64,000 bases of DNA from Cyanidioschyzon merolae (lineage: Eukaryota). The translations under genes were made by a program, and so were the position numbers. Each line of letters starts with the position of its first letter. Positions within the stretch are counted from its first letter, which is position 1. Under the pieces are notes generated by a model. It saw nothing but the letters and a program-made list of their open reading frames with translations, was not told where the DNA came from and made no database searches. Location: NCBI GenBank assembly GCA_000091205.1, contig AP006500.2; one strand, 5' to 3'. Of the stretch, positions 1 to 52,442 are shown in pieces.

Positions 1-248
1 CGGCCAGACGTGTCGACATCGGGACGCTAACGCTGCCATCAACGTCCGTCGCCCGTTGACAACGGAACTGGGTAGGCAGGATTGACCGGCGTCATTTTAA
101 AGCCTGAGATGAGAGAGCGGAAAAGGAAGCAGTCCCAGAAAAAGCGCACAGTGGCAGGCAGTTGCATCAGTTCAAAAAGAGGCTCAGACGTTAGTAGGCG
201 CGCCCGAGTACGCAATGTGTACACGATGCACTCTTTTCTGACGTGGGT
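1..248 (-). repeat. Copy c of a near-identical dispersed repeat, truncated by the window edge. It is the reverse complement of 5322-5569.
   Basis: The ORF-track peptide at 39..224 (-) is identical to the one at 5346..5531 (+). Reverse-complementing bases 1-60 gives bases 5509-5568 exactly. Homology stops at 248/5322. Confidence 0.85.
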
Positions 249-526
249 CTAACGCATAAGCAATGCCGGAAACCGTTGATGAAAAAATTGGTATGGGTCC
301 GATTCTCTGGAACTCGATATGCTGTAAAGGCTTTGTCTCTTCAGGCGAAGGAAGTCAACGGAGGCCGCTTCTCGGCAAATAAGAAAGTACACGTCGTGCA
401 ATAACGAACGCGCTCTACAATCGGACTAAGGGGCTTCCGTGCTGGCGTTGTCGCGCTTGGTGCTGGTCCGGAACGGTACTGATCGCGGTGGTTCTTCTTG
501 CTGGACGGAACAGTGCAGGTTCCCGA

Positions 527-1720
527 ATGGCAAGTTATGACCCATTTGCTTTGAAAGCAAGCGGTTGTGAGCAGAAAAAACCACCCGCCTGGTTTGAACT
601 AGGCAAAAGTCTGCTAACGCTCACGTTTGCCGCGGGCGCCGATCAAGAACCCTATAGCCCGGACTCATTTTGGATAAACGCCGGATCCGAAACCTCCAGC
701 ACACGGGTCAAGCGAAGCAGGCCCGTTGAAGCCGTTTCCACGACTAGCGCTGGCACCTCTGATGACGTTCGGGCGGCTGGACGGAGCGAAACGGATAGGC
801 AGGTCCCTGTTCAAGAGCCCCGAAACGAGCCGAAAGGTCCCGGCTGCTTCTTCCCGCCGCCAATAGACGACCGAGTTTTGTGTGTTTGCGCTTTTATTGC
901 TCGGAACTTCACAGGTCCTGATATTGAAATCGAGGCCAAGCTGGGAACAGTTATTGATCTGTCCACCAGAGAACGGGCTGTCCTACCTGGCTGCGCCACT
1001 GCGGCCTGCCTCCAAGCCGAGGTGAACAACGTGCTGCGCTTTGAGTCGAAGGTTTCTTTCGATGCATTCAAGCGACTAAACGAAGTCTTAAACAGGACAG
1101 TGGCATCAGCAGTCCGCCATCGCGGACCATTGGTGCGACATTCGCGTTCACGTCAGACGGATCTGCGCTTCTCGTCAGGCTACAGGGAGACGCGTCCGTG
1201 GAGCCGCAGCGAAGGCGAAGCAGAATCCGGAACGAATGCGACCCAAGGCAACGATAAGACGCCTGCCTCGTTCATGTTCAAGACTCGGTTAGAAACGCTG
1301 CATATTCTCTTCCCAAGTCATCCATATGATGTACGCGTGAACGCTGCCCGCGAACAGCAACTGACTCCTGCCGAAGCGGTGCGACTCGGAGACGCTCGAG
1401 GTGTACTCGAAAGTGAACGACTCAAGGATCGTTTATCCTATCGCTGTGGTGAGCTTTCCATCGATATCACCGTGGTGCACCTTCCCAGAGAGTCGCTCAT
1501 GACGTACGAGGTTGAGGTCGAGCTCATCTTCGACAACCGAGCCGACCAGTGCGCAGAACTTGTACAAGTTTGCACGGACTACCGTCAGCGTCTTGAATCC
1601 GCAGCCCCATTGGCGCCCCCAATGGGTCCTTCACCGCCAGCGTTACTCGTCACCATTGCAGAGACTCTATTCAACACGCTAGTGGCTCTGAATAACGTGC
1701 TGGCAAGCATTACCAACTAG
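527..1720 (+). CDS. mRNA-capping RNA 5'-triphosphatase, Cet1-like (triphosphate tunnel metalloenzyme family). Start is the first ATG; the ORF track starts at GTG 488.
   Basis: Motif A ExExKxG is present as DIEIEAKLG. The C-terminal metal-binding motif C is present as YEVEVELIFD. Size is ~400 aa, as in fungal/protozoan Cet1/Prt1-type enzymes. Confidence 0.6.
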   Translation: MASYDPFALKASGCEQKKPPAWFELGKSLLTLTFAAGADQEPYSPDSFWINAGSETSSTRVKRSRPVEAVSTTSAGTSDDVRAAGRSETDRQVPVQEPRNEPKGPGCFFPPPIDDRVLCVCAFIARNFTGPDIEIEAKLGTVIDLSTRERAVLPGCATAACLQAEVNNVLRFESKVSFDAFKRLNEVLNRTVASAVRHRGPLVRHSRSRQTDLRFSSGYRETRPWSRSEGEAESGTNATQGNDKTPASFMFKTRLETLHILFPSHPYDVRVNAAREQQLTPAEAVRLGDARGVLESERLKDRLSYRCGELSIDITVVHLPRESLMTYEVEVELIFDNRADQCAELVQVCTDYRQRLESAAPLAPPMGPSPPALLVTIAETLFNTLVALNNVLASITN

Positions 1721-1795
1721 TCTCCGTGGACGCTCCTGTAACCAAACCCGAACCCTGTGTCAGACGCGTCGGCACAGCGTCCTCTGGGCCGTCGC

Positions 1796-2431
1796 TCAGA
1801 CGACAAGACGGTATGTAACGTAGCGCCCTGCAGTCTCAGAGTTGCGGGTAATCTTAAGCACTTGCCCTCGTGTCACACCAAAGTAACGCGCGACGGGATC
1901 GCTCTGTAGGATGCGCGGCAGCTGCGTGTCCTTGAGCTGGTACCGTTTAAGGAGGGTCTTCTTCTGCTCCGCCGTCAGAACTTCGTGCTTAGGAACCAGC
2001 TGGTGTCGAGTGATATTCACTAAAAGCTCAGCTTCTTGGAAAAGCTCCAGATGAAAGCGCGGTTGGAGCTCTGCCACCGCCTGTTTCGCAATAGGAGTCA
2101 AGCCCGTCTGCACGACGATGATCGCACGAAGTACGTTCTCTGTCTCCAAGCGAAGGCAGTACTCTCGGATGGGCTTCACACCCACCTTCTCCTCTTTGGG
2201 GAAAAAGACGTATATTTGGTTAGAGCGATCGTTGCGATGCTGCCGCAACATGGTAAGAGACTCTCGCGCACGCCCCGCTGCGTCGAACTTGTGTGCGAAC
2301 TCTTCCAACGGCAGTTCCAAGTCAGTTTTCGTCGGTAAAACGAGGTAACCACGGTCTCGTAGCATTTCTAGAATCGTCCGACGAATCCTATGTAAACGAC
2401 GCGTCTCGTCGGCCTGGATGTCGGTGGCCAT
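1796..2431 (-). CDS. RPB5: DNA-directed RNA polymerases I/II/III shared subunit RPB5 (RPABC1).
   Basis: 211 aa with an ATG start (CAT at 2429-2431). The N-terminal jaw domain (LHRIRRTILEMLRDRGY) and C-terminal assembly domain (IIVVQ...TP.AK., HELVPKHEVLT..EK..LL..Y) match RPB5 throughout. Confidence 0.85.
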   Translation of the reverse strand: MATDIQADETRRLHRIRRTILEMLRDRGYLVLPTKTDLELPLEEFAHKFDAAGRARESLTMLRQHRNDRSNQIYVFFPKEEKVGVKPIREYCLRLETENVLRAIIVVQTGLTPIAKQAVAELQPRFHLELFQEAELLVNITRHQLVPKHEVLTAEQKKTLLKRYQLKDTQLPRILQSDPVARYFGVTRGQVLKITRNSETAGRYVTYRLVV

Positions 2432-3815
2432 TGCGACGAACGCACCGCTGCCAAAACAAGTGCAACGATTACGGCGACAACAGTGTTCACGGTGGTCTCG
2501 CGTAGGCCTTTGCGTCGGCTTTAGCTCGGAGCGATATGTTCGGCAGCGAAAACCACAACACCGTCAACGTTAGCGTCTGTGTAGCGAACGCTTCGCAGTA
2601 GCGCTCCCTCGGAACGCGAACACAGTACAATGCTCATCCAGGCTGATATGCGGTCGCGAACGCCCCCGCGATAGCGCTGCCCAGGAGCAAGGAGCCTTTG
2701 ACGGAACGCCTGCTTGACAAACTGCAGAGCTTCGACTGGTGTCACTTACTAAACGCAACCAGTACAAGCCTGATGAAGGTATGCACGCACCCTGCAGTGG
2801 CTGCAGCTTAAGAGAGTCTTGCTCGTGTTTGCGGACGCTCCGGGCAAAGTAGGCCAGGAAGCAGTGCAGCTATCTGGTGACTACGCTGCAGGCCGATGGA
2901 AACGACCTTTTGGAACACGTAGGTGTTGAAGTCCCTGTCTGGCGCTGTTTCATAACCTGAAAGAGGCAGCCAAGCAGCTCAGGGCCATGTTTGACGTTTT
3001 TCGTGGTTTGGACGCTATTTTGGACAAGTTCTTGAGGGCAGTGCGCGGAGCTGCGACACGCTGGTGTTTCCCAAAGTCGCTCGCATACGGGGACAGACAA
3101 TTTGATGCGTCGGTACACTCGTCATGAAGATGCTCGTCGCCTGGACGGGAGTATTTCGGGAAGGATGCGGATAAATCGAGGCCACGTGCCCCGTTTCGCT
3201 TCGGGAGTACCCGCGAGCCACTGGGCAGCAGCAAAGTACCCGACGCTTACGTAGCGTCGATCGCACGTCCCGCGAGTCGCACTGCTGCAGTAGTGCCGAT
3301 GCGGCAACCAGCAACCTGCAACACTGTGTACTACGGATAGCCGCTCGCTGACGGTGCCTCAGCGATGGACCTGGAAACAGCGGAACGCCGGTCGTGTGCT
3401 GTGGTCTGCCTACTTCACTCGAATGCATTGGGGAGCTGTCGGAGAGCAGGGAAATCGCGGTGTCCGCGAGCAGTGTGCCGCGTTCCATGTAACGATTTCA
3501 CTCGTATGTACACTCGTGAGCGCGTCGACGTTGGGCAATATGCTTCGAATCTGGGCCACGGAAAACAAGAAGCTGGAAAGGTTTCGAAGCAGATCACTTC
3601 GCAACCACGAACTGTCTCTTGTCTGAAACTTGGATGCTTTACGTATTTACGGATCCGCCGAAGCGTTTCCGCAGCTCTTCTGAGTTGCACAGATACGAAA
3701 ACCGTTCCATCAAATCCGCCTAGACAAAGCGCACACTATCTAGTCGCCATATAAAAGTGATACCGAATCCGAAGGATGCTTGTGCAATCACCGTCTCTCA
3801 TTCGTCCGGACCAGC

Positions 3816-5117
3816 TCAATGCCGAGATTTGTATTCCTGGTTGAGATCGTCGACTCCAAACTCAAAAGCAACCTCTGCCTCGGCTTCCGCCAAATCCGCT
3901 GGTGTCATCATCTCGTCTATCATGACGTCAGCCTTTTTCTCCCAACGCAGCGCCCAGCAACGTATTAGCTGCACAAGGAGCCAAGCCAGCAGAACAGATG
4001 CTGTCAACGTAGCGATCACAAACAGTACGATCCCGTAGAGAGGCCACCCGTTGGATTCTCCGAGATCGCATCCATCGTTCGTGCACAACAGCATCTGAAG
4101 CGTCCGGTTCCCGAGCGAATGTATCGCAATACCGGGAGCCAGTGTTGGATAAAGGAGCGCGTCCGCAGGATCCGCTGTTTCCACGAAGAATGCACTGTCG
4201 TTCGCCGCGCAAACAGGCGAACAGGTACGCTTCAGAGAGTAATGATCCGAAACGGATGGCCTCAGAAAATAAATAGACTGTTCCGGCGTGTATTTGCTGG
4301 GGGCATAGAGACTCGGTAACTCGCTCAAAACTGATGTCGATGCAAAGTATAGCTCATCGGAGGTGACGAAACGCGGGACCAAGTCCTGGTGGTGCACAAA
4401 CGCACCCAATGATACCAGCGGCAGGAAGCCGTCATGGCCACGCTCAGGAGATCCGTACAAGAAAATATCAAAGAAGGTCGATGCTTCGTCGTTATTGTCG
4501 TCGACGAGAAAAGCAGGCTGGTTGACGGCGTTCGCACGAATGAGACCTGTGAAGCCCAGCACTATCGCCGCCGCTCGTAGAACAACCGTCGGAAGATCGT
4601 ATTCATCTGGCGGTGGTTTGCCGTCTGTTCCCAGATAGAACCGATTCGCAGAGCGCAGGTACACCCAGCACTGAAGCGAGTCCGAGTTCACTGGCTTGAA
4701 CAGGTACTCCTGCACCGCTTGGGTTGAGGCAAGCTGGTAAGAGCCGCTCGCATAGAACGGTCGAACACCTGCTTGCGTCGATACGAACGACTGGGTCACA
4801 TAAAATAGCTCGGTCTCGCGCGTTGCTTGATCCTTCAGAAATTGAGTTGACTCGTTGATGAAGGAGAAGTTACATGTTACCGTCTGTGCTCGCAGACCTG
4901 GATATTGCTGTGGCCAAATTTGCAGCGAATAGTTTATCGCGTCGTACCGTTGCTTTAGCACCGTCTGATTGGTGACGCCATCTTCGGAGTACACTGAAAA
5001 CTCCCAGAAAGGTCGACTAAGTCCAAGTGCAGTCCACCGCTGGAAGACCAGCAGCGAAACGAGGCCGAGCCGCAGTAGCCAGCGCCAGGAAGCTGCTGAG
5101 CCTGTGGTTGCTGCCAT
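3816..5117 (-). CDS. Hypothetical type I membrane glycoprotein, with an N-terminal signal peptide and a single C-terminal TM helix. Start is the first ATG; the ORF track extends to GTG at 5327.
   Basis: Long single ORF. From the internal Met there is a hydrophobic N-terminus (MAATTGSAASWRWLLRLGLVSLLVF). A C-terminal TM segment (LYGIVLFVIATLTASVLLAWLLV) is followed by a charged tail. No family recognised. Confidence 0.45.
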   Translation of the reverse strand: MAATTGSAASWRWLLRLGLVSLLVFQRWTALGLSRPFWEFSVYSEDGVTNQTVLKQRYDAINYSLQIWPQQYPGLRAQTVTCNFSFINESTQFLKDQATRETELFYVTQSFVSTQAGVRPFYASGSYQLASTQAVQEYLFKPVNSDSLQCWVYLRSANRFYLGTDGKPPPDEYDLPTVVLRAAAIVLGFTGLIRANAVNQPAFLVDDNNDEASTFFDIFLYGSPERGHDGFLPLVSLGAFVHHQDLVPRFVTSDELYFASTSVLSELPSLYAPSKYTPEQSIYFLRPSVSDHYSLKRTCSPVCAANDSAFFVETADPADALLYPTLAPGIAIHSLGNRTLQMLLCTNDGCDLGESNGWPLYGIVLFVIATLTASVLLAWLLVQLIRCWALRWEKKADVMIDEMMTPADLAEAEAEVAFEFGVDDLNQEYKSRH

Positions 5118-5246
5118 GATGGAGCCAGCAGACTGCGGCCTCGTACAAGCTTGTTCTGACGAGTGATCTTCGTCGACAGCGAGTGTGGGTTGTTCTTGTA
5201 CACGAGGACGTAGCAAAGGAGTGCCTGAAATAGCCGGCAAACACCT

Positions 5247-5263
5247 ACACACACACACACGAA
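5247..5263. repeat. (CA)n microsatellite.
   Basis: acacacacacacac run at ~5249-5262. Confidence 0.6.
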
Positions 5264-5321
5264 CGCAGGTAGCACGGTCCAACACAACAGCTCGCCGACG
5301 AGATTTTCGCGATGCCAGTAC

Positions 5322-6695
5322 ACCCACGTCAGAAAAGAGTGCATCGTGTACACATTGCGTACTCGGGCGCGCCTACTAACGTCTGAGCCTCTTTTTGAAC
5401 TGATGCAACTGCCTGCCACTGTGCGCTTTTTCTGGGACTGCTTCCTTTTCCGCTCTCTCATCTCAGGCTTTAAAATGACGCCGGTCAATCCTGCCTACCC
5501 AGTTCCGTTGTCAACGGGCGACGGACGTTGATGGCAGCGTTAGCGTCCCGATGTCGACACGTCTGGCCGTTGCAGACGCTGTTCGTTCATGGGCAGAAGT
5601 TGCGATCCACGCTTCAGGTGTTCTCTCTGTCTAGTTTGGACGCGGGCGCTGGACGCCGTTCCGCGCGTTGACCCTTGACAGTGGTCAGGTGTTCCGAGAC
5701 ACCCACTACACCTCGCAGCGTTAACCTGTGGCGGGTGGACGCTTGCTTCACCGCTCGGTGCCTGGCCTTGACGGGTACAGAAGGCGCCAGTGGGTGCTCT
5801 CGTACGTTTCCACACCTGGCGCTATGCCTCGCGATCACCTGCTTCGCCTGGGCGACTCCCTAGGCGGGAGCGCTGTCTGCTGCACACGCAGGCGCACTGT
5901 GTCGCACTCCATGGAGGATTTGTGGAACGCGATATTGTCCACGATGAGAAGAGCACCGGGAGCTCCATCCAGGGCGCCGAGCGAGCTGAGCGATGTCCAT
6001 CGGTGAACGCTGACGCCGTGTAAAGCGCTGGTACGCGCTCCACCGGAGACGGTCGCTGCGATGACCTCTGGCCGAGGTCAGGACATTTTTCCGTGCAACC
6101 GGAAAAGACTGGAGCTTTCGGGAATACATGCCCTGAAGGGTCTCGTGCTCGCGTCGAATGCCATGTCTTTGGCGGTTCCAAATAGAGGCTGATTTGGCTT
6201 TCGAACGGAATCGATTGTATGATGACCAGAGGTCAGTGATTTTCTGACCCGAGCCCGTGAGCGAGCCGTCAAGCGACGTCATCGTGTTAGCCTTGTCTGT
6301 GTAGACGATGTTGCCCGTTGCTGAGCGCCGACTCTGCTACGAAACAGAGTGCTCGAGAACGCGAAGAATGCGCGATTGAGGCATCCGCTAGACGCTGGGA
6401 AGGGAGAAGCGTGGATGCTCATCCGAATGACAGGGAAATTGAAGTGTAATACTCTGCGAAGCCTTATTCGATAGCAACGCGAATCATGTTGATTCCGGTG
6501 ACGGACCCGCTTCCGTCTGGGAAGCGTTGTGGTGTTCATTCCGAAAGGACAACCGCAAATCGTAAAACTGTTTACGAATCCATACATCCTTATTGCTGGA
6601 CTCTGATTATCCAGGCTGCACATCAGAAAAACAGCCTCGGAAGACCCCAATGGCAGAAACTGGGCGAGCAACTCCCTTTTCCTTTCTAGTCTGAC
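5322..6695 (+). repeat. Copy a of the dispersed repeat, and the longest copy. Its first 248 bp form an inverted repeat with 1-248. Bases 5448-6695 are a direct repeat of 10545-11793.
   Basis: Paired ORF-track entries are offset by 5098 bp with near-identical peptides, differing by 1-2 residues (5540..5815 vs 10638..10913, 5860..6282 vs 10958..11380, etc.). No convincing coding potential. Confidence 0.85.
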
Positions 6696-7931
6696 ACAGG
6701 TGTAGCAGCATGGACAAATTCTCCGATCCAGGAAAGCGCGTTTTCGCCAAGGCACAACCCGCTTTGACACGGCAGGTCTTTCAGGAGCGGGAACGTTCGA
6801 ATGGTAACCGTCTCTCCTCTCTCGCGCTCTGTGGAGAGTGGGGTCTGGATGTGTTCCGCTCAACCGAAAAGGCTCCACTACAATCTCTGTTCGCATTTGC
6901 GCCTCGACAGAATTTACCGGGATTTCATCTCCCAAATTCTTTATCATGGCTTAAGATCGATGTATCTGACATGTATCGCTTGGATGCGCGACTACCGCCA
7001 GTGCCCAATGGAAGAGAATTGCGTTGTTCCACACCAGCAGCGGTTCACGCGTCGCTCCCCGCGGGAAACGAGTGGCGAGCGCAATGACCAGAGCCTGAGG
7101 AGACAGGAGGCTGGAGCTCGCCGCACAGGCAGGTATCGGATATTTCGCTGCGTCGAACGATCCTCGATGAATCGTTTTCCGTGTGCAAAGCGCAAGGGTT
7201 TCTCGGGCGAGTCGGCGCACTGGTGCCGTCCTCAACTCGGCCAGAAAGCGCGCCACTGCCCTGGCATGCACAGCGGAACCAGCAAGCTCCACATTCGACA
7301 AGGTCCATTCGGCAAGTCCCTGCAGATTATTTCAGATGGACCAATACAGTCCGTAACCAGGAAGTTAACCATCATTCCATTACATATTCTTCGACGTTAT
7401 ATCAGATCACGACTTGTCTTTCCCTCCATCATAGATACTTCATGAATCTATCGCCCGTTCGGGTGCCCAGCCTGTGCCAGTCACTTGCTGTGTCGCTGGA
7501 TGCGCCGTCGCCGGGTGCGACGCATGCAGACAGGACACCAACGCGACGCTTTCCTAGCAGTTGGTTCGGAGAGGTCCGACTCTGTGCCGCCGTGCGAAGC
7601 ATTCGCTTCGGGTCTGCAACCCCAAACTTGAACACGACTCTGGGTCCAGCGGGTGTTTCAGAGGACGCTGTCGGTTTATGCCTCGCGCTTCCCTGGTTGC
7701 CGATGGGCATCGCGCAGCCGGGCGAATGCCGCTTCGATGCACTTCCGGGTACACCGCCCCGTACATGCAGTAATCGAAATCGCGCGCGCACAGATGCATG
7801 CGTTTCCCGCCAGAAAGACGCTGCCGTAGGCGGCAATCGCACGGCAGCACGCGCGATCCCCATCCGCTTGTATCCCGAGCGCTTTGAGCGTTCTCTTGGA
7901 CTGTGTTCCTCACTGCGAACGTGTCTCCGGA

Positions 7932-10424
7932 ATGGCCACTGAACTAGCATACCGACTGCCATTTGATAGTCTGAACTTGGGTAGTAACCCTCAGCAAAGC
8001 TTGCGGGCGCTCGGTGGCTCACAACCTTCAGACTCTCGCGGTGGGGCGGGCCGGAGTCGTAGCAGTCCTGCGAACACGTACTCGACGGACGTGGAAGTCC
8101 TCGTCCACTTCTTTCAGACTTTTGTGGATGATCGTGAGGCAAACCCGAGCTTGGGCAGCGACAGTCTGGACAGGGATGCCGACGGGACTCGCCACACGGC
8201 CGCTGGCTCCGAAGCGGCTGAGGAGCCCGCTGCGCTAGGCGAGCGGCAGAACTTGCGAGGCGTCGCGCCAAAGTACCTGCGCCATCTGCAAAAAATTGTC
8301 GACCGCGACTCCAAAATACTTGCTGTTGAGCTGGATGACTTGTTCACGGCTCATGAGGAAACGCTCGCTATGCGCATCCAGCTGAACACCAAGCGGTACA
8401 TTGAAATCTTGTCTCAGGCTGCGGACGCCATTATCGCCACGTTGCGACCGAGTAGGCTGCTGGCTTTGGACACTCTAGACCTATTGATGCAGCAGCGGGA
8501 GCAAAACGAACAGGAGAACCGTCTCGAAGACCAGGAGCTTTTCGGTAATGCCGGTGCTGGTGCTGGTGCAGCAGACGAAGATCCCTACAAGCGCATTCCC
8601 CCGCTTTTGGCGCGGCGCTATCAGGTGCAGCTGGTCCCTGCATCAGAGGACAAACCGTTCCGGATCCGTGATGTGCGAGCTGAGCATGTTGGCCGGCTTG
8701 TGCAAGTCAGTGGCATCGTAACGCGCGTGCTCGATGTGCGCCCACTCGTTCAGGTTGCCATTTATGTCTGCGATGCCTGCGGTACGGAGTATTACCAACC
8801 GATACCGGGACGACAATATATGCCCCTTTTCTTTTGCTCAAAGCAAGAATGCATGCGTTCCGCCACCGGAGGCGGGCGTCTCATTCCCCAGTATCGTGCT
8901 TTCAAATATAGCAAGTTCCAAGAGATTCGCATTCAAGAGCCCGCGCACGATGTTCCCGTTGGTAGCATTCCACGAACGTTAACTGTTCTGTTGCAAGGCG
9001 AACTCTCGAATGCTTGCGCAGCTGGCGACCACATTACGGTGGCCGGTATTTTTTTGCCAACGCTCGTGTCTGGCTTTCGCGCGTTCAAGCAGGGACTCCT
9101 GTCGGACACCTACCTCGAAGCCACTTTCATTCGGCAACAAAAACGGGACTACAAGGATTATCAGCGGGAAATAGCCCGCAATCAGCTCATTCAGGCTCGG
9201 ATTGCTGAACTCGCCAGTACCGCTGGAGTTTATGATCGGCTCGCGCGCTCCATTGCTCCAGAAATCTACGGGCACGAGGATGTCAAAAAAGCGCTCCTTC
9301 TGCAACTGGTAGGCGCACCGACCCGTGAACTTGCTGATGGGATGCGCCTGCGCGGTGATATACACGTATGCCTCATGGGCGATCCCGGTGTCGCCAAGTC
9401 GCAGCTGCTTCGCTACATCTGCAATGTAGCACCGCGAGGCGTCTACACTACGGGCAAGGGCTCGAGTGGTGTGGGCCTCACCGCAGCCGTTCTCCGTGAC
9501 TCCAATACCGGTGATGTGACGTTAGAAGGCGGCGCCCTCGTCATGGCTGACTGCGGCATCGCATGCATCGATGAATTCGACAAAATGGATGAGATTGATC
9601 GCACCTATATCCATGAGGTCATGGAGCAACAGACAGTCTCGATCGCCAAAGCTGGTATTACGACTTCGCTGAATGCACGGGCGGCCGTTCTCGCAGCAGC
9701 GAATCCAGTTCAGGGCCGTTATAATCGACGACGCTCAGCCGCCGAAAATATCAACATGCCAGCAGCACTGCTGTCGCGCTTTGATCTGTTGTTCCTCATG
9801 CTCGATGCACCCGATCAGGACAAGGACCTGGCTCTTGCCCGACATGTGACGTACGTGCACCGGACGGGCGAGGCCCCAGAACTCGGATTCGAACCAGCGT
9901 CACCCGACTTGCTGCGAGCCTACGTTGCGCAGGCTCGACAGTGTGTGCCCGTAGTACCGTCCGAGTTGACGGCCTATGTCGTAGAACACTACGTAGCGCT
10001 ACGCGCTGATGATAAGCAGCGCCGCTGGTTGCCTCGCGGCCACACGACTGCTCGCACGTTGCTGAGCATCCTACGACTTGCACAGGCACTCGCTCGGCTG
10101 CGCTTTTCCAACCTTGTTTCGCGCGAAGATATTGATGAAGCTGTGCGACTGCTCAACTGCTCCAAGGCCTCTCTGGACGATCCGAGCGAGGCAGGTGGCC
10201 ATCGGAACTTGCACGAGCTGGACGCGACAACGCGGATCTATCTACTCATCCGCGACCATGCTGCTGACCGGGGCGAGCGCTCGGTGCCCATTGCGGACAT
10301 CCTCGAGCAGGCCCTGCAGCAAGGTTTCACTAGCCAACAGTTCTACACCGCGCTGAGTGAATACGAAGACATCAATATCTGGTCGGTGGACTCGAACCGT
10401 ACCCGCATTACATTCACGGTGTGA
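7932..10424 (+). CDS. MCM7: DNA replication licensing factor MCM7. Start is the first ATG; the ORF track starts at TTG 7884.
   Basis: The zinc finger CDACGTEYYQPI...CSKQEC is followed by GGRL...FQEIRIQE...VPVGSIPR...GDHITVAGIFLP, closely matching metazoan MCM7. Walker A is GDPGVAKSQLL. The MCM box IDEFDKMD and arginine-finger region SRFDLLF are present. 830 aa. Confidence 0.92.
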   Translation: MATELAYRLPFDSLNLGSNPQQSLRALGGSQPSDSRGGAGRSRSSPANTYSTDVEVLVHFFQTFVDDREANPSLGSDSLDRDADGTRHTAAGSEAAEEPAALGERQNLRGVAPKYLRHLQKIVDRDSKILAVELDDLFTAHEETLAMRIQLNTKRYIEILSQAADAIIATLRPSRLLALDTLDLLMQQREQNEQENRLEDQELFGNAGAGAGAADEDPYKRIPPLLARRYQVQLVPASEDKPFRIRDVRAEHVGRLVQVSGIVTRVLDVRPLVQVAIYVCDACGTEYYQPIPGRQYMPLFFCSKQECMRSATGGGRLIPQYRAFKYSKFQEIRIQEPAHDVPVGSIPRTLTVLLQGELSNACAAGDHITVAGIFLPTLVSGFRAFKQGLLSDTYLEATFIRQQKRDYKDYQREIARNQLIQARIAELASTAGVYDRLARSIAPEIYGHEDVKKALLLQLVGAPTRELADGMRLRGDIHVCLMGDPGVAKSQLLRYICNVAPRGVYTTGKGSSGVGLTAAVLRDSNTGDVTLEGGALVMADCGIACIDEFDKMDEIDRTYIHEVMEQQTVSIAKAGITTSLNARAAVLAAANPVQGRYNRRRSAAENINMPAALLSRFDLLFLMLDAPDQDKDLALARHVTYVHRTGEAPELGFEPASPDLLRAYVAQARQCVPVVPSELTAYVVEHYVALRADDKQRRWLPRGHTTARTLLSILRLAQALARLRFSNLVSREDIDEAVRLLNCSKASLDDPSEAGGHRNLHELDATTRIYLLIRDHAADRGERSVPIADILEQALQQGFTSQQFYTALSEYEDINIWSVDSNRTRITFTV

Positions 10425-10544
10425 ACGTTCGCCTGCCTAGTCAAGACCAATGCCAGAATAATATGGAACGCGTCCCCCATCTCGGGCGTTCACATGAACG
10501 ACTGGATCTGTTTCTAATGTCGTCAGCACCAGGCTTTGCGGCCA

Positions 10545-11793
10545 TTTCCGCTCTCTCATCTCAGGCTTTAAAATGACGCCGGTCAATCCTGCCTACCCAG
10601 TTCCGTTGTCAACGGGCGACGGACGTTGATGGCAGCGTTAGCGTCCCGATGTCGACACGTCTGGCCGTTGCAGACGCTGTTCGTTCATGGGCAGAAGTTG
10701 CGATCCACGCTTCAGGTGTTCTCTCTGTCTAGTTTGGACGCGGGCGCTGGACGCCGTTCCGCGCGTTGACCCTTGACAGTGGTCAGGTGTTCCGAGACAC
10801 CCACTACACCTCGCAGCGTTAACCTGTGGCGGGTGGACGCTTGCTTCACCGCTCGGTGCCTGGCCTTGACGGGTACAGAAGGCGCCAGTGGGTGCTCTCG
10901 TACGTTTCCGCACCTGGCGCTATGCCTCGCGATCACCTGCTTCGCCTGGGCGACTCCCTAGGCGGGAGCGCTGTCTGCTGCACACGCAGGCGCACTGTGG
11001 CGCACTCCATGGAGGATTTGTGGAACGCGATATTGTCCACGATGAGAAGAGCACCGGGAGCTCCATCCAGGGCGCCGAGCGAGCTGAGCGATGTCCATCG
11101 GTGAACGCTGACGCCGTGTAAAGCGCTGGTACGCGCTCCACCGGAGACGGTCGCTGCGATGACCTCTGGCCGAGGTCAGGACATTTTTCCGTGCAACCGG
11201 AAAAGACTGGAGCTTTCGGGAATACATGCCCTGAAGGGTCTCGTGCTCGCGTCGAATGCCATGTCTTTGGCGGTTCCAAATAGAGGCTGATTTGGCTTTC
11301 GAACGGAATCGATTGTATGATGACCAGAGGTCAGTGATTTTCTGACCCGAGCCCGTGAGCGAGCCGTCAAGCGACGTCATCGTGTTAGCCTTGTCTGTGT
11401 AGACGATGTTGCCCGTTGCTGAGCGCCGACTCTGCTACGAAACAGAGTGCTCGAGAACGCGAAGAATGCGCGATTGAGGCATCCGCTAGACGCTGGGAAG
11501 GGAGAAGCGTGGATGCTCATCCGAATGACAGGGAAATTGAAGTGTAATACTCTGCGAAGCCTTATTCGATAGCAACGCGAATCATGTTGATTCCGGTGAC
11601 GGACCCGCTTCCGTCTGGGAAGCGTTGTGGTGTTCATTCCGTAAGGACAACCGCAAATCGTAAAACTGTTTACGAATCCATACATCCTTATTGCTGGACT
11701 CTGATTATCCAGGCTGCACATCAGAAAAACAGCCTCGGAAGACCCCAATGGCAGAAACTGGGCGAGCAACTCCCTTTTCCTTTCTAGTCTGAC
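10545..11793 (+). repeat. Copy b of the dispersed repeat. It is >99% identical to 5448-6695 and fills the whole MCM7-TAD3 intergenic space.
   Basis: Collinear with copy a at offset 5097-5098 (one 1-bp indel). I saw only a handful of substitutions, e.g. at 5807, 5902 and 6541. Confidence 0.88.
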
Positions 11794-11886
11794 GTAGCTT
11801 TCACAAAATCGCATCTCGTTTGACTTTGACGATCCGGATCCGGCTTGGGGCTCCTCGCAGCACCCGTCTGTTCTCCGCTCGAGCGT

Positions 11887-12750
11887 ATGAAAGCACCACA
11901 GTACACCTTATGCGCATGTGTCGATCAAGAGGAGCTCCAGAAGCGCATGAGTCTCGAACCGGAGCGACACGTCGAAGTGTGGGTGATCCAGGCGATCCCG
12001 CGTCACGCGGAACAACTGCTGCGGTACCTGTCGAGTTCGGTGCCGCTTGGTCGAGAGCTCGCCCATTTGAAGCGTGGACACCGGGATAGCACCGGTGCCG
12101 TCAACGTACTGCTTGCACTCGTCTCCGCGGACGATCCGGAAGTTCCCAACCGAAACGCGCACGCCGTACTAGAGCGACTCGGTGTGGCACGCGAGTGGGT
12201 ACATACCGCCACGCTTCGCCGGTGTGTTGTGCCCGCAGTGGCGCCTCGAACTGGACTACAGAGTCAGCACTGGTCGCGAACGCTCTGGCCTGTTATATAC
12301 AGGCCAGAGGCTCCGGAACCACCGATACTCGCTGAGACCGAGGTCGGCACGGCGCTGGAGCTCCTCGAACGTCTCGAGCACGAGACGCAGGGCACCGACG
12401 TTAACGCCGCTCTTGTTGTGCGTTGGCCGCTACCCAGCGCACCTGCACAGGTGATCTGCAGTGTCCAGGGTCCGCATGCGCCACTCAGGTGCATCGACGA
12501 AGCGTCCCGCATTTTCCGCGACCGAGACAACGGCGAGGAGCATCCGCATTATATGCTCACTGGTTTGGACCTCTTCACAGTTCGGGAGCCGTGTGTTTGC
12601 TGTGCAATGGCGGCGACGCATTCTCGCATTCGTCGCCTGTTCTTTATTCACCCGGACGCGAGCTTCGGTGGGATCCTTCGGGTCGGCGTGCATCGACTCA
12701 AGGCCCTTAATCATCGGTACGAGGCGTATCAGCGCCAGCTCGCCTCTTAG
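11887..12750 (+). CDS. tRNA-specific adenosine deaminase subunit, Tad3/ADAT3-like, of the CDA superfamily. The catalytic Glu is replaced (HAP instead of HAE). Start is the first ATG; the ORF track starts at TTG 11845.
   Basis: C-terminal deaminase motifs: HAPLRCIDEA...TGLDLFTVREPCVCCAMAATHSRIRRLFF (H-[AE]-x ... PCxxC ... HSRIRR). Confidence 0.55.
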   Translation: MKAPQYTLCACVDQEELQKRMSLEPERHVEVWVIQAIPRHAEQLLRYLSSSVPLGRELAHLKRGHRDSTGAVNVLLALVSADDPEVPNRNAHAVLERLGVAREWVHTATLRRCVVPAVAPRTGLQSQHWSRTLWPVIYRPEAPEPPILAETEVGTALELLERLEHETQGTDVNAALVVRWPLPSAPAQVICSVQGPHAPLRCIDEASRIFRDRDNGEEHPHYMLTGLDLFTVREPCVCCAMAATHSRIRRLFFIHPDASFGGILRVGVHRLKALNHRYEAYQRQLAS

Positions 12751-14068
12751 CGAACAAGTGGCGTGCGTGTGTGTTTCGCGCGCTTCCCCCGTACAGGAGC
12801 GGACGCTGAACGCATGTATCCGATTCAGCAATACGGGGGCTAAGAGAGATTCATGGGAGTATGGAGCACGTCAACGGAAGCTTTCGTCGGGTCCGCATTG
12901 GCGACATCAGCACAGTTTCGGAGTCGTGGTTCAGGCATCAGCCCTGCGCCTGCGAACTGGGACCTAGGTACCCGCACGATAATGCCGTAGCGCTGGGGGT
13001 GCATCGACTGGCACGAAACCGCGTGATCCGGATGCGGTGTGGTCGGGCGCTACGTTCGCAAACGCATGCTCGTCGGTGACATCCTGTGGGCGGCATGACG
13101 CTATGCTGGGGCAGTCTCGCTTTTTTTTGTCTCGGATTTCGGAAGCATCCGACGAGACCGTCAGTGTATTCAGATTCGGCGTGTCAAATTGAAAGCGCTG
13201 GGGATGTGACGTACAAGGCGCTAGAGGTTTTGGAGCGCCACTATGTAACCGGACTCGACATACGAACTGACTGAGCGACACACCTGTAGAGCACGACGCT
13301 ATAGGGCCCTCGCTGCCCGGAGGGCACGAAAATACAGAGAGGATGCTGCTCGGTGGAGCGCGTGGATAGCGCACGCAGAGGTCTTGACGGGCGCGCGCTG
13401 CTCGAGGGCCATCACGCCGGACACGTGTCCATCCCAAGATGCTTGCGTGCACGCACACGCGATGCATCGCAATTTTCGCGATCATTCACAGGCGAGGAAT
13501 GCTCCTGACAGGCCGCTTGTCGAGTTACACCCGGAAACTACCAAAAGAATGAAAGCGTGCTCTGGGTTGCGGATTTGCATGCGCACTGCTGCCGGAAGCG
13601 AGCAATTCACTCAATGTCCGCAGTCACTCTGCGTGGTGCTAGCGATTCTTTAGGTCAATTAGAATTGAAAGAGGTTTCCGAGCAGCTTCCAGAGAAGGAC
13701 GCTGCGAAAGCATCCCCTATCGAAGAGATTTCATGCAAGCGCAGGTTGCTGCTGCTGAAAATTGGATAACGCAGCTGGTGTCGATGTCTCACCATGATGC
13801 TGGCGAGTCAACGAATGCGCTGCATCCGTCAGCTCGGAAGTGCCATCGCGACACACCGCTACCGCGGTATCACCCCGTGAGCAGCGCATGTTGCTTGCGC
13901 ACCGGATATGGAGCGCTGAATGCCTCCTACGTGCACGCTATTCAGTGCGTGCGGATACACATGATACTCAGGATCGGCTGCTTCCGTGATCTCGATCTGC
14001 CATCTCCAAGTTGGCCATTTTGCTTCGCGCACAAATCGCTTATCATGATCATTCGTCAGTTTGCTCCG

Positions 14069-18152: not shown

Positions 18153-18555
18153 ACCCTCCGGCGTTGGCAACAACCGGTTTCGGCTCCTGCAGAGGTGTCG
18201 TATCTGCGCTCTAGGCCCTCGCTGCGCAAGCGCTAGCCGCTACCGACGACAAACCGAGTTATATCGCGGAGCACAGGTCGCCCAGCCTCTAAGAAGGGCT
18301 CTGTGCTCGGACCTCGATAGATCGGTGCTCGCCGCACATTTGCGGCTGCCTCCGAAGCAGTACTGTTCTGGGCGGATGGTCTATTCGATCCTGTTCCTGT
18401 CAAAGATCCAGACCGCTGCATAGCGTGCTTCACTACCCTAGCTGCAACCGAGTGTTGCAAGGCAAACGCGAAAGCGCTTTGATAGCACCGGGGTGTGGTG
18501 CAGCGGTGTCCCCAGCTGAGGTTGAAGGGAAAGCGCGCGCTCTCGTCCATGTGCC

Positions 18556-18897
18556 GCTGGGCTTACGGATTACAGACGCCGCGATCGACCTCGACAGACT
18601 GTGCATGTGCCGCTGGGCTTACGGATTTCGCGCGTAGCGATCGTCCACTGGAGGCACTGCTGCGATTACGGATTTCGCGCGTAGCGATCGTCCACTGGAG
18701 GCACTGCTGCGATTACGGATTTCGCGCGTAGCGATCGTCCACTGGAGGCACTGCTGCGATTACGGATTTCGCACGTAGCGATCGTCCACTGGAGGCACCG
18801 CTGCGATTACGGATTTCGAGCGTAGCGATCGCCAGCTGGAGGCACCGCTGCGATTACGGATTTCGCGCGTAGCGATCGCCAGCTGGAGGCGCTCAGG
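18556..18897. repeat. 47-bp minisatellite, ~6.5 copies, with unit gattacggatttcgcgcgtagcgatcgtccactggaggcactgctgc.
   Basis: Period 47 bp: gattacgg recurs at 18663, 18710, 18757, 18804 and 18851. There are diverged leading copies and point variants (cactgc/caccgc, gtccac/gccagc). Confidence 0.85.
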
Positions 18898-20702: not shown

Positions 20703-21906
20703 GATGAAGGAAGCCTTTCGAGGCGAACGTGTAGCATGGACGCAATCGCTTGTGTGTCCGTTGTGTCGCGATACCTTGGTATGACCAGATTCGAAACTGG
20801 CGAGTGCTTGTTTCCAGCTGTGTCGAAGTGACGCACGTAGATGCATTCGCCCGGAAGCGTGCGTCTTGCCAGGAGCCAGCGGACAGCTCGCCGTTCCGAC
20901 GTCGTCTTTTCGTCTCTGGACTGGCACGGCTACGGACCTCGGCGTGTCCATGGGCGTGGCATCGTGCGCATGTATACATCGCCGTTGCGCCTTCGGCTCA
21001 GCGCTGTCTCCAGTTATACACCATGCGCGCTGCCAAAGGCATCAGGATTGTTTTCGAGCGATTTCGCGGGGAAACAACCCAGAGAGCCCATGCGTCGCGA
21101 CTTTGGGGAGCGGTTTAGATTGGCTCAGGAATGTAAAGGGTACGCTAAACCGCACCAAAAAGCCAGGTTGTTCGCGAGGCATGCGAGCAGGCGGTGTACC
21201 CCCGAGAAAGCCGACGATTGGACGGTTTATGTATGTGCGAGCACGCTACGCTGCACCCGCAACACCGCGATTCGAGACGCCTCCGCCATTGTGCAGCAAG
21301 CAGACAGTGCCTTGTGGCAGTTCGGAGCAGCTGCAGGTGCCGGGGCACAGCATTGCGCGGCAGACTCTGGGCATAGATGACGGTGGACGCACAGAGGCTG
21401 CAACCGTGGCCTGCTGCGCAATACCTGCAGCAATGATGGGGTGCTGGACGCTACGTTGGCATCGCGAGTTCTGGTGTCTACCACGACACACAGGAGGATG
21501 CCTCTCTGGAACGCAGCTGTTTAGAGTAGGTTGTCCAGTGCGTTCGTTGCTCCGAGAAACGCGGTTACAAGTAAATGAAATTCCCGTATGGTACCGGAAC
21601 TGGCCTTGGAGCTGTCGGAGCAGAGACTGCAACCGACACTCGCCTCTGTGAGCGGTCTGCGAGCCAGCGCCCAAGCACACCTGGAAGGAGTTGCGTCGTC
21701 TTGCCTCCGGGTTCCTGGACAGAAACGTTCACGAGCACGAGTGTACCCTGTCGCGGTGGGCACGGCAGTGCGCCGGCGCACCTGTCCAGCGAACAGTTGC
21801 GCGTGAGCCTGTCGAGCGTGCGCCCGCACCAGTGCCTGTCCGACTGGGAGCACGGCTCGCTGAACGGCGTGCCTACGCTTCACGTGTGCCCTCAAAAACA
21901 AAAGCT

Positions 21907-39130: not shown

Positions 39131-40483
39131 TCAATTTCCAGGAAACAGCAAGGACCCGATAAGGCATGCTGAAAGCGGTACCGTTATATTATCATCACCA
39201 GGCGCGACAAGTTCCACCACAGCACAGCACACAGTAAGCATTGCAATGCGCGCTGCCGCAGCAGCGATCCCGATGTCGACGTATCCCCACGCGTGGAAAA
39301 TCGCGATGTACAGACACGATACTAGAAACGCGCTGACAATGAACACCGTGGTGCCGCCGATGGTTTTCTGCGAGCCACCACCCCGTGGTAGTGGCCATTT
39401 CGGTGTTCGCCATCGACGCCCAATGAGATCCGCCATCCCGTCCCCGACACACATTTGGATCAGGGCCAGGATCCCTACCGGTGACGGGCCGCGCCAGAAG
39501 AGAAACGTACATACCGTTGTCGCTAGGCAGTAGTAAAGCGGTCCTTTGAGCGCTTCACTTCGATCTCCTTGAACCACCATCGATGCATTTGCGGTCATGG
39601 ATTGCTCCGAGGCGCCGTCCTCATCGGCATGCTCTCGGATCCATTTCTGCATTGCTGCCTTCTGTCGCGCCAACGCATTCACCAGCGTGTCTTGACTTAG
39701 ACCCAGACCTGCCAACAGAAGCCTCACCGAGAGAATCGCAGGCACCATGGCTGCAATGCCCTGCGAGCTCCTCGCAGCCATGCTCAGAAACGTCGACCAC
39801 GACTGGAGGGAGACCCCCGCGGGAACCGCGCCAGCTGCGACGTGATTCTCGGCAAAGAGTGGCCACGACAGCATGAAGAGAGGCACACTGGTGATGTGAA
39901 CGATCTTACGAGAGAGTGTTGACTCAATGTATCCGTTTGTAGCGAGCCAGTCCCATATTTTCAGCCACGCGTACGAGCCGATCAGAGCGAATACGGCGGC
40001 TGCCAGGTCGCGTGTGACGAGCGCGTTGCCGTGCACAACTTGAAGACTCTCGCGCGCCACTGTGCTTCCTGAAGCGTAGCAAGGCGCAGATAACGTCCCG
40101 ACCAGTGCAGCGCCCAACGTTTCCAGGTACTGCCGCCAACGCGAAGCGTCCCTGCTGGCGAATACCCCCACAGACGGTAAACGACGCTGCCAGACGCTGC
40201 CTTTGACCTCGAGTTCGTGAGCGTGCCATCCAGTGAACCTAGAACGCGTTTCGTTATCCTGTCCGCCTCTGGTGCAGTGACGTTGTGCATTGCGCGGCAC
40301 TTGGCCTCGGTTATCGGGCTGAAAGCAGCACGAGCCCCAGCATCGTCTACGCCAGACTGCTATCGTTTGCGTTGCATTCGTCGGGTGCTGCGCAACATCC
40401 AGGTAGCGCCGAAGTGTACCAAGCGCCGGCCAAACGAAGCAGACACTGTCACCAGGACGTGCCCTACGGTGCACGAGCCGCAT
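39131..40483 (-). CDS. CTP-dependent polyprenol kinase-like membrane protein (phytol kinase VTE5 / dolichol kinase / CDS family).
   Basis: ATG start. Multi-TM protein. SRKIVHITSVPLF matches the RKxxH motif. The C-terminal CVGDGMADLIGRRWRTPKWP matches the cytidylyltransferase-family D..A..GR..G motif. An N-terminal ~110 aa extension could be a transit peptide. Confidence 0.5.
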   Translation of the reverse strand: MRLVHRRARPGDSVCFVWPALGTLRRYLDVAQHPTNATQTIAVWRRRCWGSCCFQPDNRGQVPRNAQRHCTRGGQDNETRSRFTGWHAHELEVKGSVWQRRLPSVGVFASRDASRWRQYLETLGAALVGTLSAPCYASGSTVARESLQVVHGNALVTRDLAAAVFALIGSYAWLKIWDWLATNGYIESTLSRKIVHITSVPLFMLSWPLFAENHVAAGAVPAGVSLQSWSTFLSMAARSSQGIAAMVPAILSVRLLLAGLGLSQDTLVNALARQKAAMQKWIREHADEDGASEQSMTANASMVVQGDRSEALKGPLYYCLATTVCTFLFWRGPSPVGILALIQMCVGDGMADLIGRRWRTPKWPLPRGGGSQKTIGGTTVFIVSAFLVSCLYIAIFHAWGYVDIGIAAAAARIAMLTVCCAVVELVAPGDDNITVPLSACLIGSLLFPGN

Positions 40484-40690: not shown

Positions 40691-40772
40691 ATGCCTCCTG
40701 TGGCGAAGCGAGCGCCAACAGTGGGCGCAGTGAACGGAGCGCACAGCATCGATCTAGATATCGCTTTTAAGG

Positions 40773-41215
40773 GAACGAAACCTACTCAAGCGTTATGATC
40801 CACAAACGTCTATCTGAACGAACGGAGATCCGTTTCGCTTTATCGGGTAGCAATGATTCATCCGGGATAGAGTCTGTTTGGGCTTGTCGAATGTACATCG
40901 TGAAAATTCGCTCTGCTGGAGTCTCTATTCTATAGAGAACGAAACCTACGCAAGCGTTATGATACACAAACGTCTATCTGAACGAACGGAGATCCGTTTC
41001 GCTTTATCTGGTAGCAATGATTCATCCGGGATAGAGTCTGTTTGGGCTTGTCGAATGTACATCGTGAAAATTCGCTCTGCTGGAATCTCTATTTTATAGA
41101 GAACGAAACCTACTGAAGCGTTATGATACACAAACGTCTATCTGAACGAATGGAGATCCGTTTCGCTTTATCGGGTAGCAATGATTCATCCAGGGTAGAG
41201 TCTGTTCATACGCAT
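40773..41215. repeat. 165-bp satellite, 2.7 tandem copies.
   Basis: Copies at 40773-40937, 40938-41102 and 41103-~41215 (partial) differ by a few substitutions. The ORF-track peptides at 40782..40967 and 40946..41131 are near-identical. Confidence 0.88.
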
Positions 41216-41429
41216 TCATCGTACATCCTGGGGAAATTCTAGCCAAGCAGCCAAAACGAAGTACGAGTAGCACCGCACTGCTGCTGGCAGACGCGGGAAA
41301 CATGCGCTGGGGGTACGTGGCGCGCACGCCTCGCGCTTCCATCCATAGCGCTTTCCAGGCGAAACAGTGACACCTGGAAAGAGGCGATTTCCCGGAAACC
41401 TCGTGATTCAGCCTGGAACGATTTCCGAT

Positions 41430-43442
41430 ATGGAAAACTTCAAAACTCAGCGTCTCGGGGGTCAGGGTTCGCAACAGACCTCGGGAGAAACTGGCACTGC
41501 GACTACTGGCAGAAGGCGCACGGTGCGTCGCAAACGGGGCACTAGCGGTGCCACAGTGCGTCGGCCGGTGCGAGCGAAAGGAGCGCACGACGTGCAACAC
41601 CCAGCCGCTGCGTCGAGCTCGGAGAGCACTGCTCACAGGGATTCTTGGCATGGTCCGGAAGATGAGCATCCAAAGGGAGTGCTGGGCGCGACGCAGTCGA
41701 CCAAAAAAACCGTCGTGACTTACGAAACCAAGTTGGCGGCAAGCTTCGAAGAGCACCAGTCCCCGGCGCGTGTGCCTGTCGGACCGGCACAAACGCCCAC
41801 GAACGAGGCGGGAAGCGCGAGCGGAACCATGCCATTGTCACCACAGCAAACTACGGTGACACTGGGCACACCCAAGGGAGATCCCATGGCTCGGGCGCTG
41901 GCGCGCTGCAAGTCACCGGAGCGTCGTGGCCCCAGAACACCGCGGACTATCGAGCCAGCTCTGTCTGGCGAGCGCATAGGCGAGAATGCCCGGGCGGAGC
42001 AGGTGCCCAAGGCTCCGCACCGCGACGCCTTTTACGAAAAGGGAGCTGCATCTGTTGCGCATGAGCATTCAGAGACATCCGTTCCGGCAGAGGCGCCGAG
42101 CACAACTGATCTAAGTACCCAATCCACTATCAGCGTCGTCTCTCAAGCGGAAGGACCCAAAAAGCGCGTCCGAAAAAAGCAGAGACATGGACAAGAGCCG
42201 AAGAATGGTAGGATGTCTGCGAGCCGCCAAAAGCATGCGCATGCCAGTACGGATGGTGGTGCGCCTGAAGCTGCCACAAGTTCGCTTCTGTCGCGAACAG
42301 CGCTTACGGTGAGTCCTTCCCGCGGGAAAACTGAGCATGCTGCAGAAAGCATCAAGAAAGAGACAGCAATTAGGGGTGCAACAGCGAGCAAGGTCCAGGA
42401 GGATAATCGGCGATCGGCCTTTGCGAGCAGCGACAAAGTGGGGCAAGAAGAAAAGGATTCAGCGGAAAGGCGTCCAACTCGCCTCGGGCACGTGTCGAAG
42501 AAGAGCGTAGCCACGGGCGCGAATGCGCCTATTGCAGACACCAAATCGGTATCGCCACCACTGCACCAACTGAGTGCTACAGACAAGGAGCGCTTCCATG
42601 CCCCGGAAACCGGGTTTGCGTCTACGACTAGCAGGCGCGAGTCGCAGACTGCATCAGAGTTGCAAAAGCACCAAATGTCTATGAAAGATGCGCATGCAAG
42701 CAGCGAGCGCAACGAACCGTCACGGAAGAAGCGGGCCGCTGCGCTGTTACAACCCGCTGCGCTCGAGACAGACGCGCAATCGGGTACAAAGCACAGTAGC
42801 CCCTATCGAACAGCGGCATCAGCGCCGACGATAGAAACTAGACAGAAAACGAAGCGCCCTGTAGACTCGAAACCAGCGCTGGAACCTGCAATGCCGCTGA
42901 AGAGACCAGCCTCTGAACCAGCTGGTGTCGACACGGACCCCAGACACCATCGCTCAGCAGAGGCGACTGTAGCGCAGCTGCCAGCCGAGCGTCGTGGTAC
43001 GAGGCGCGTCCCAGCGAAGCGAGATGCCACCACCGAAGCCCAGCCTGCACCCCCGTCTCTGGATCACGATGCAGCTGAGCGCCTTGGTGACATACGTTTC
43101 AACGATCAGTGGAATTTATTTTTCGATCATGACAAGGGGCGATTTTATCCGGTCCATTTCGCCATTCATCCGAACGCGGCTGACGCTGCAGCCATGCACG
43201 CTGAAATTGAAAACAACGCCACTTTACAGCAAGAGCTCCGTGAGCTCGTTTTCACTATCTGTCGCCTGCCGGTTTTGCCGCCACGATGTATTTTGACCCC
43301 CTCCATGCTTGTTGAAATTGTCTTGGAGGACAGAGCCGATCTGCGCGGCTTGCTTGCTGGCAAATATGCGCTCTGGCGCGGCGATGTACCCGTATTGCCG
43401 GACAAGTTCTGGTACACATTTCTTATTCAAAAACTGCTCTGA
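41430..43442 (+). CDS. Hypothetical low-complexity basic/Ser-Ala-rich protein with a structured C-terminal ~130 aa. Start is the first ATG; the ORF track starts at GTG 41367.
   Basis: Long ORF in frame with the local GC3 bias. The C-terminal segment (WNLFFDHDKGRFYPVHF...WYTFLIQKLL) looks globular. No family recognised. Confidence 0.45.
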   Translation: MENFKTQRLGGQGSQQTSGETGTATTGRRRTVRRKRGTSGATVRRPVRAKGAHDVQHPAAASSSESTAHRDSWHGPEDEHPKGVLGATQSTKKTVVTYETKLAASFEEHQSPARVPVGPAQTPTNEAGSASGTMPLSPQQTTVTLGTPKGDPMARALARCKSPERRGPRTPRTIEPALSGERIGENARAEQVPKAPHRDAFYEKGAASVAHEHSETSVPAEAPSTTDLSTQSTISVVSQAEGPKKRVRKKQRHGQEPKNGRMSASRQKHAHASTDGGAPEAATSSLLSRTALTVSPSRGKTEHAAESIKKETAIRGATASKVQEDNRRSAFASSDKVGQEEKDSAERRPTRLGHVSKKSVATGANAPIADTKSVSPPLHQLSATDKERFHAPETGFASTTSRRESQTASELQKHQMSMKDAHASSERNEPSRKKRAAALLQPAALETDAQSGTKHSSPYRTAASAPTIETRQKTKRPVDSKPALEPAMPLKRPASEPAGVDTDPRHHRSAEATVAQLPAERRGTRRVPAKRDATTEAQPAPPSLDHDAAERLGDIRFNDQWNLFFDHDKGRFYPVHFAIHPNAADAAAMHAEIENNATLQQELRELVFTICRLPVLPPRCILTPSMLVEIVLEDRADLRGLLAGKYALWRGDVPVLPDKFWYTFLIQKLL

Positions 43443-48624: not shown

Positions 48625-49017
48625 TTTCCGGTGGCAAATGCGCTGCGCACCTGTAGGCTCCGCTCCAGAGCGTTGCACCTTCGAACGAATGCCGTTGCGA
48701 GCTCGCGCACTGCAGCAGGAACTGGGCCCACAGGTCGCAGATGCCGTTTCAGTCCCGCTCGCGTCAGAGTGTCAAGCCTAAATTTATCTTGATGCTCTCT
48801 ATGAAAAGCCAGATCTATACAGATAAGGCGTACCTGTGCCCTATCCTGGCGTACTACCCCCGTGTTGAACGCAGCAGAGGCGTGCACTCGTGTCGATGCC
48901 CGCGAGTGCCAGCGGCGGGCGCCGGCGTCGTCGACCCGCTCTCGCAGATCGTTTCGCTGCACTGCGGTGTGGCGACACAGCGTGCAACACACCATGAGAA
49001 CATCATTATGAACACGA

Positions 49018-52407: not shown

Positions 52408-52442
<35 letters not shown>

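Follow-up and report, generated by a model that had tools for sequence, protein, structure and literature searches.

A stand-alone Cet1/Pct1-type RNA 5'-triphosphatase gene in nuclear DNA of the red alga Cyanidioschyzon merolae

The closest described relatives of the protein analysed here are the yeast RNA 5'-triphosphatases Pct1 and Cet1. Schizosaccharomyces pombe Pct1 (4pn0/4pn1) is the best match by both sequence and predicted fold and is, like the algal protein, a stand-alone triphosphatase. Saccharomyces cerevisiae Cet1 (1d8h, 3kyh), which shares the family and the tunnel fold but is more distant from the algal protein than Pct1, docks on the guanylyltransferase Ceg1 via a WAQKW peptide, and it has a paralogue, Cth1, with a non-capping role. 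Enzymes of this family (PF02940) also hydrolyse NTPs in a Mn/Co-dependent manner. Trypanosoma cruzi Cet1 (6l7v-6l7y) and the mimivirus triphosphatase domain (3bgy, 2qy2) belong to the same family and match in their C-terminal motifs, but they are much more distant and form smaller, minimal tunnels; the mimivirus triphosphatase is in addition fused to other capping activities, unlike the algal protein. The metazoan/plant enzyme, a cysteine-phosphatase fused to a guanylyltransferase, serves the same step of the capping reaction with an unrelated fold and chemistry, acting through a covalent cysteinyl-phosphate intermediate and independently of metal (PMC2904801, PMC5172449).

Near one end of the window, the whole stretch of 64,000 nucleotides that was analysed, an uninterrupted open reading frame runs from an ATG at position 527 to a stop codon at 1718-1720 and comprises 397 codons. 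The gene and the principal features of its catalytic part are:

527..1720, plus strand: coding sequence of the Cet1/Pct1-type RNA 5'-triphosphatase, 397 amino acids plus stop, complete
854..1717, plus strand: folded catalytic domain, residues 110-397, with a triphosphate-tunnel fold by AlphaFold2 and Foldseek
926..946, plus strand: motif A, EIEAKLG, residues 134-140, first metal-binding glutamate strand, aligned with Cet1 IELEMKFG
1418..1441, plus strand: motif B, RLKDRLSY, residues 298-305, basic strand, aligned with Cet1 RTKDRVSY
1502..1525, plus strand: motif C, TYEVEVEL, second metal-binding glutamate strand, aligned with Cet1 THEVELEI

No earlier ATG precedes the one at 527 in the open frame; a mechanical list of open reading frames takes the frame back as far as a GTG at 488, upstream of which in-frame stop codons follow. 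In an alignment of nine homologous sequences, which also served as a search profile (A1), the homologues from three other Cyanidiales likewise begin M-x-x-YDPF. The ATG at 527 is thus supported as the start codon by these shared beginnings, with their invariant Pro6. The translation is identical at 397 of 397 positions to a C. merolae 10D protein (BAM82462.1 / XP_005538498.1 / UniRef100_M1VGW6; pairwise comparison), which identifies the window as nuclear DNA of this red alga. The composition of the window, with 53-60% GC and tightly packed, apparently uninterrupted open reading frames, fits C. merolae nuclear DNA. Full-length orthologues occur in Cyanidiococcus yangmingshanensis (56% identity), in another Cyanidiales-like genome (54%) and in Cyanidium caldarium (39-42%), each beside RPB5.

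The gene and its type are already known. Members of the identical cluster are named 'hypothetical protein, conserved', 'polynucleotide 5'-triphosphatase' and 'mRNA 5'-phosphatase'. According to a review of 2004, 'the red alga Cyanidioschyzon' has the metal-dependent triphosphatase found in fungi (PMC5172449), and Hausmann et al. 2005, as cited in a passage of PMC11157219, place the C. merolae enzyme in the tunnel family. Our analysis adds nothing new to the biology, since the gene already stands in the catalogues and its assignment to the capping type has been in print since about 2004-2005, some twenty years. A literature search for an experimental paper, biochemical or genetic, on the C. merolae triphosphatase found none.

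Sequence searches place the protein firmly in the family of the yeast enzymes. Residues 132-333 match PF02940, mRNA_triPase ('mRNA capping enzyme, beta chain'), scoring 88 bits, where the gathering score is 24 bits, with an E-value of 9.7e-25; the match spans profile positions 26-221 of 221, and no other Pfam family reaches E<=1. A scan against NCBIfam, whose models are directed at bacteria and archaea, gave no match, as expected. In a search of the PDB with the single sequence, Pct1 (4pn0) was matched at 3e-12 and T. cruzi Cet1 (6l7v) at 1e-3. With the A1 profile, the E-values improved to 3.8e-54 for Pct1 and 9.6e-12 for T. cruzi Cet1; S. cerevisiae Cet1 (1d8h/3kyh) was matched at 1.7e-26, and the mimivirus triphosphatase domain (3bgy, 2qy2) only weakly, at 0.06.

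A structural model calculated by AlphaFold2 on alignment A1 (mean pLDDT 72.8, pTM 0.68) consists of a core at about residues 110-397, with pLDDT mostly >88, and two segments predicted to be disordered, residues 1-107 (pLDDT <50) and residues 229-243. The modelled core is composed of an N-terminal helix followed by eight long antiparallel strands (residues 133-144, 204-215, 219-224, 248-261, 268-279, 294-307, 310-319 and 324-333), one short strand and flanking helices, with five helices in total. Foldseek comparison with the PDB gave Pct1 as the best match (E 4.8e-18, TM (target) 0.81, rmsd 3.0 Å), followed by Cet1 (E 1.6e-14, TM (target) 0.70), T. cruzi Cet1 (E 4.8e-12, TM (target) 0.70) and the mimivirus triphosphatase (E 7.9e-6, TM (target) 0.52). 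The eight long strands and the TM of 0.81 to Pct1 bear out, at the level of a predicted structure, an eight-stranded antiparallel beta-barrel tunnel; the original prediction had named structure prediction of the eight-strand tunnel as a check.

All three motifs recur in Pct1, which the profile alignment follows as far as the end of the chain, C-terminal region included. The two proteins nevertheless share only about 21% identity in the Foldseek alignment. Moreover, the algal protein differs from Pct1 in having a longer disordered N-terminus (107 residues), the disordered insert at residues 229-243 and a proline-rich linker (about residues 359-371) between the last two helices.

The residues that line the tunnel are strongly conserved. 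Alignment A1 contains 33 invariant columns, which include positions in all three motifs. Specifically, E134, E136, K138 and G140 are invariant in motif A, R298, K300, D301, R302, S304 and Y305 in motif B, and T326, E328, E330 and E332 in motif C, where EVEVEL occupies residues 328-333 (nucleotides 1508-1525). Both glutamate-rich strands on which the original prediction was based, EIEAKLG and EVEVEL, are present in the translation of the 527-1720 frame where it had placed them. Cet1 has a one-to-one counterpart for each of the motif glutamates and for the R-x-K-D-R strand, the algal IEIEAKLG and SIDITVV strands pair with IELEMKFG and RIDITKV of Cet1, and many of the invariant columns coincide with identical or conservatively substituted Cet1 positions. 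The matching invariant residues are E134, E136, K252, D268, R270 (Lys in Cet1), E276, R298, K300, R302, D313, T315, E328, E330 and E332. We take these residues to correspond to Glu305/307, Lys409, Glu433, Arg454/Lys456/Arg458, Asp471/Thr473 and Glu492/494/496 of the Cet1 mutational literature, and the numbering offset of the 1d8h chain is consistent with this correspondence. The basic strand of motif B presumably makes contact with the triphosphate. For Cet1 Arg393, the algal equivalent is probably R220, in a Y-R-E-T strand, an assignment made from the alignment and ambiguous to the extent that HMMER aligns the loop-rich residues 212-247 inconsistently.

In agreement with the original prediction of a protein not fused to a guanylyltransferase, PF02940 is the only domain in the 397 residues, and the gene is flanked by RPB5 on the opposite strand and by a non-coding repeat upstream. 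The same holds for its relatives. A word-indexed protein search with the nine-sequence profile gave 15 members of the large PF02940 family, and all 15 carry PF02940 alone, the orthologues being 365-401 residues long and the others 284-773. No guanylyltransferase (PF01331, PF03919) or DSPc domain was found in the 20 further open reading frames of at least 250 amino acids that were scanned in the window. Likewise, no guanylyltransferase gene is present in the 4.7 kb upstream, which consist of a BRO1-domain gene and a non-coding repeat, as judged from metagenome contig L003 (99.7% identical to the window). According to published work, the C. merolae guanylyltransferase is a separate, stand-alone protein: it was among the sequences used in PMC2904801, where it is given as CMA035C under 'GTase (functional with TPaseMDP)' (Table S1). 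A full-text literature search for 'CMA035C' returned no papers. The statement that C. merolae has a separate guanylyltransferase and no fused cysteine-phosphatase enzyme rests on this literature.

Taken together, the family, the predicted fold, the conservation of the tunnel residues, the single-domain organization and the identity to a catalogued C. merolae protein make us highly confident that the gene encodes a Cet1/Pct1-type tunnel metalloenzyme acting on the 5' ends of nascent RNA polymerase II transcripts, with a separately encoded guanylyltransferase; we infer catalysis, metal dependence, the capping role and the separate partner on the basis of family membership and of genome analyses in the literature. 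In such a mechanism, the 5'-triphosphate end of the nascent transcript would enter the beta-barrel tunnel, where a divalent metal would be held by E134, E136, E328, E330 and E332 of the first and last strands, and the phosphates would be held by the basic tunnel-lining side chains K252, R298, K300, R302 and probably R220. Hydrolysis of the gamma-phosphate would leave a diphosphate end, which the separate guanylyltransferase (CMA035C in the literature) would then cap with GMP. By analogy with the NTP hydrolysis of PF02940-type enzymes, the protein may have an additional, non-capping role.

Family membership alone is no proof of a cellular role, and, as with Cth1, the protein could be a non-capping paralogue of Cet1, the true capping triphosphatase being another gene. 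We regard this as improbable. The database searches, of which the word-indexed one is insensitive, recovered a single C. merolae cluster; the gene is full-length, retains all the tunnel residues and has kept its synteny across three Cyanidiales genera; and published genome surveys take the C. merolae protein as the capping enzyme.

Less probable still is that the protein belongs to the CYTH branch, as a thiamine triphosphatase, a CyaB-type cyclase or an AtTTM3-like inorganic tripolyphosphatase, and has nothing to do with capping. The CYTH enzymes share the fold class, and the Sulfolobus TTM, AtTTM3 and class IV adenylate cyclases are indeed among the distant matches in Foldseek (7nsa, 5a5y and 3n0z, E about 1e-4 to 1e-3). 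However, the capping triphosphatases are better by 10 to 14 orders of magnitude, with TM of 0.7-0.8 against about 0.4, and the Pfam scan found no match to the CYTH model (PF01928) at E<=1, against 88 bits for PF02940. In addition, the protein has the Cet1-type RxKDRxSY strand, and the alignment of the A1 profile with Pct1 reaches the end of the chain, through the predicted C-terminal helices. Because the best HMM match and the best-matching structures are capping triphosphatases, Pfam and Foldseek thus agreeing, we rejected the CYTH subgroup in favour of the Cet1 type.

A chance open reading frame or a decaying pseudogene, for which only the general caveat speaks that lists of open reading frames are mechanical, is effectively refuted by the match to a curated family at E 9.7e-25, the confident model of the core and the full-length conservation across genera in A1 (39-56% identity).

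The Cet1/Pct1-type catalytic domain is preceded by a long N-terminal region, in which three short motifs stand out:

527..847, plus strand: N-terminal region, residues 1-107, predicted to be disordered, poorly conserved save for the three motifs
536..547, plus strand: YDPF motif, residues 4-7, with Pro6 invariant in 9/9 aligned homologues
581..604, plus strand: PPAWFELG peptide, residues 19-26, kept in the three closest homologues
710..724, plus strand: KRSRP basic patch, residues 62-66, KR-x-R in most homologues

None of the three is seen in the aligned part of the Pct1 N-terminus. KRSRP resembles a nuclear localisation signal and may be one. The algal peptide, whose conserved form is PPAWF(E/D)LG, bears a loose likeness, of three residues only (PPAW against P-x-W-A), to the P-(A/I/V)-W-A peptides that three fungal homologues retrieved with the profile (P0019-P0021) carry towards their N-termini. 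In Cet1, this type of peptide is the Ceg1-docking motif. It is speculative that the PPAW peptide docks the guanylyltransferase as a counterpart of that motif. More generally, YDPF and PPAWF(E/D)LG might provide a lineage-specific means of recruitment to the guanylyltransferase or to RNA polymerase II, a proposal that we consider rather doubtful. If it were true, red algae would use Cet1-style docking, not the independent recruitment of Pct1.

Pfam, the fold comparison and the identity to a catalogued protein all vindicate the original prediction in its central point, that the motifs denote a capping triphosphatase. Its suggestion that the enzyme type is informative about lineage is weaker than was implied, the character being patchy and not following eukaryote phylogeny in a simple way. 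Red algae are sister to green plants, which use the fused cysteine-phosphatase type. C. merolae is a thermoacidophilic red alga of hot springs, and the further remark that this class of enzyme is a selective drug target applies to pathogens, not to such an organism. Our analysis confirms that a red alga, in the group that includes the green plants, has a triphosphatase of the yeast type; according to the literature, it lacks the fused metazoan/plant enzyme. The presence of the yeast type in this alga has served as a marker of deep relationships among eukaryotes, a use that is contested (PMC5172449, PMC2904801). In Trichomonas, the metazoan/plant type is found (PMC2904801). Inference of lineage therefore needs care, since a relative of the green plants has the 'fungal' type and Trichomonas the 'metazoan/plant' type.

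The downstream neighbour of the triphosphatase gene, at 1796-2431 on the opposite strand, encodes the RNA polymerase subunit RPB5 (Pfam E 1e-35 and 2e-26). The two genes are convergent, with 75 nt between their stop codons in C. merolae, and the convergent pair is kept in Cyanidiococcus and Cyanidium. In Cyanidiococcus, the triphosphatase and RPB5 genes as called share their last 19 nt (contig L001, 7185-7203). That a capping enzyme lies beside a polymerase subunit is probably coincidental, the genome being compact. The gene order in Cyanidiococcus and Cyanidium (contigs L001 and L002) is MCM7 (minus), triphosphatase (plus), RPB5 (minus), a gene of 469/489 amino acids (minus) and BRO1 (minus). 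Relative to this order, the three-gene block of C. merolae (window 527-5327) is inverted between BRO1 and MCM7, consistent with recombination between flanking inverted repeats.

Three copies of a non-coding repeat, about 1.25-1.4 kb long, lie at window positions 1-251, 5319-6695 and 10542-11793. The first of these is the edge of a copy that extends past the window by about 990 nt (L003 3256-4497). Positions 1-251 form a perfect inverted repeat of 5319-5569, and positions 5444-6695 are repeated directly at 10542-11793 (99.7%), so that the inverted pair brackets the block of triphosphatase, RPB5 and a 503-amino-acid open reading frame, and MCM7 lies between the members of the direct pair. Metagenome contigs L003, L004 and L005, which are 99.6-99.7% identical to the window, join the repeat copies in three ways. 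These arrangements could be real flipping or deletion, or mis-joins by the assembler. Because all breakpoints of the three contigs lie inside the 1.25-kb repeat, mis-joins explain them equally well, and we did not accept the contigs as structural variants. Natural flipping of the triphosphatase-RPB5 block, a matter separate from N-terminal recruitment, is likewise something to which we give little credence. A search of window positions 1-13000 against Rfam gave no match.

The 503-amino-acid open reading frame (window 3816-5327, minus strand) has no Pfam match, and its position is kept as that of the 469/489-amino-acid gene in Cyanidiococcus and Cyanidium. Its product, which has a hydrophobic stretch at the C-terminus and a number of N-x-S/T sites, may be a membrane or secreted protein specific to this lineage. 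Other open reading frames in the window encode, by Pfam, MCM7, an alcohol dehydrogenase, methyltransferases, an amidophosphoribosyltransferase-like protein, a GFO/IDH/MocA oxidoreductase, a protein kinase, an LrgA/LrgB-domain protein, Pet127, a pyrophosphatase, a spermidine synthase and a SNF2/RING helicase. Five long open reading frames of 261-997 amino acids (11845-12750, 20866-21651, 39131-40483, 41367-43442 and 50663-53656) have no Pfam family at E<=0.001. Finally, self-BLAST detects tandem repeats at 18545-18890, 40770-41206 and 49001-49632, with 88-96% identity and offsets of about 56-165 nt.
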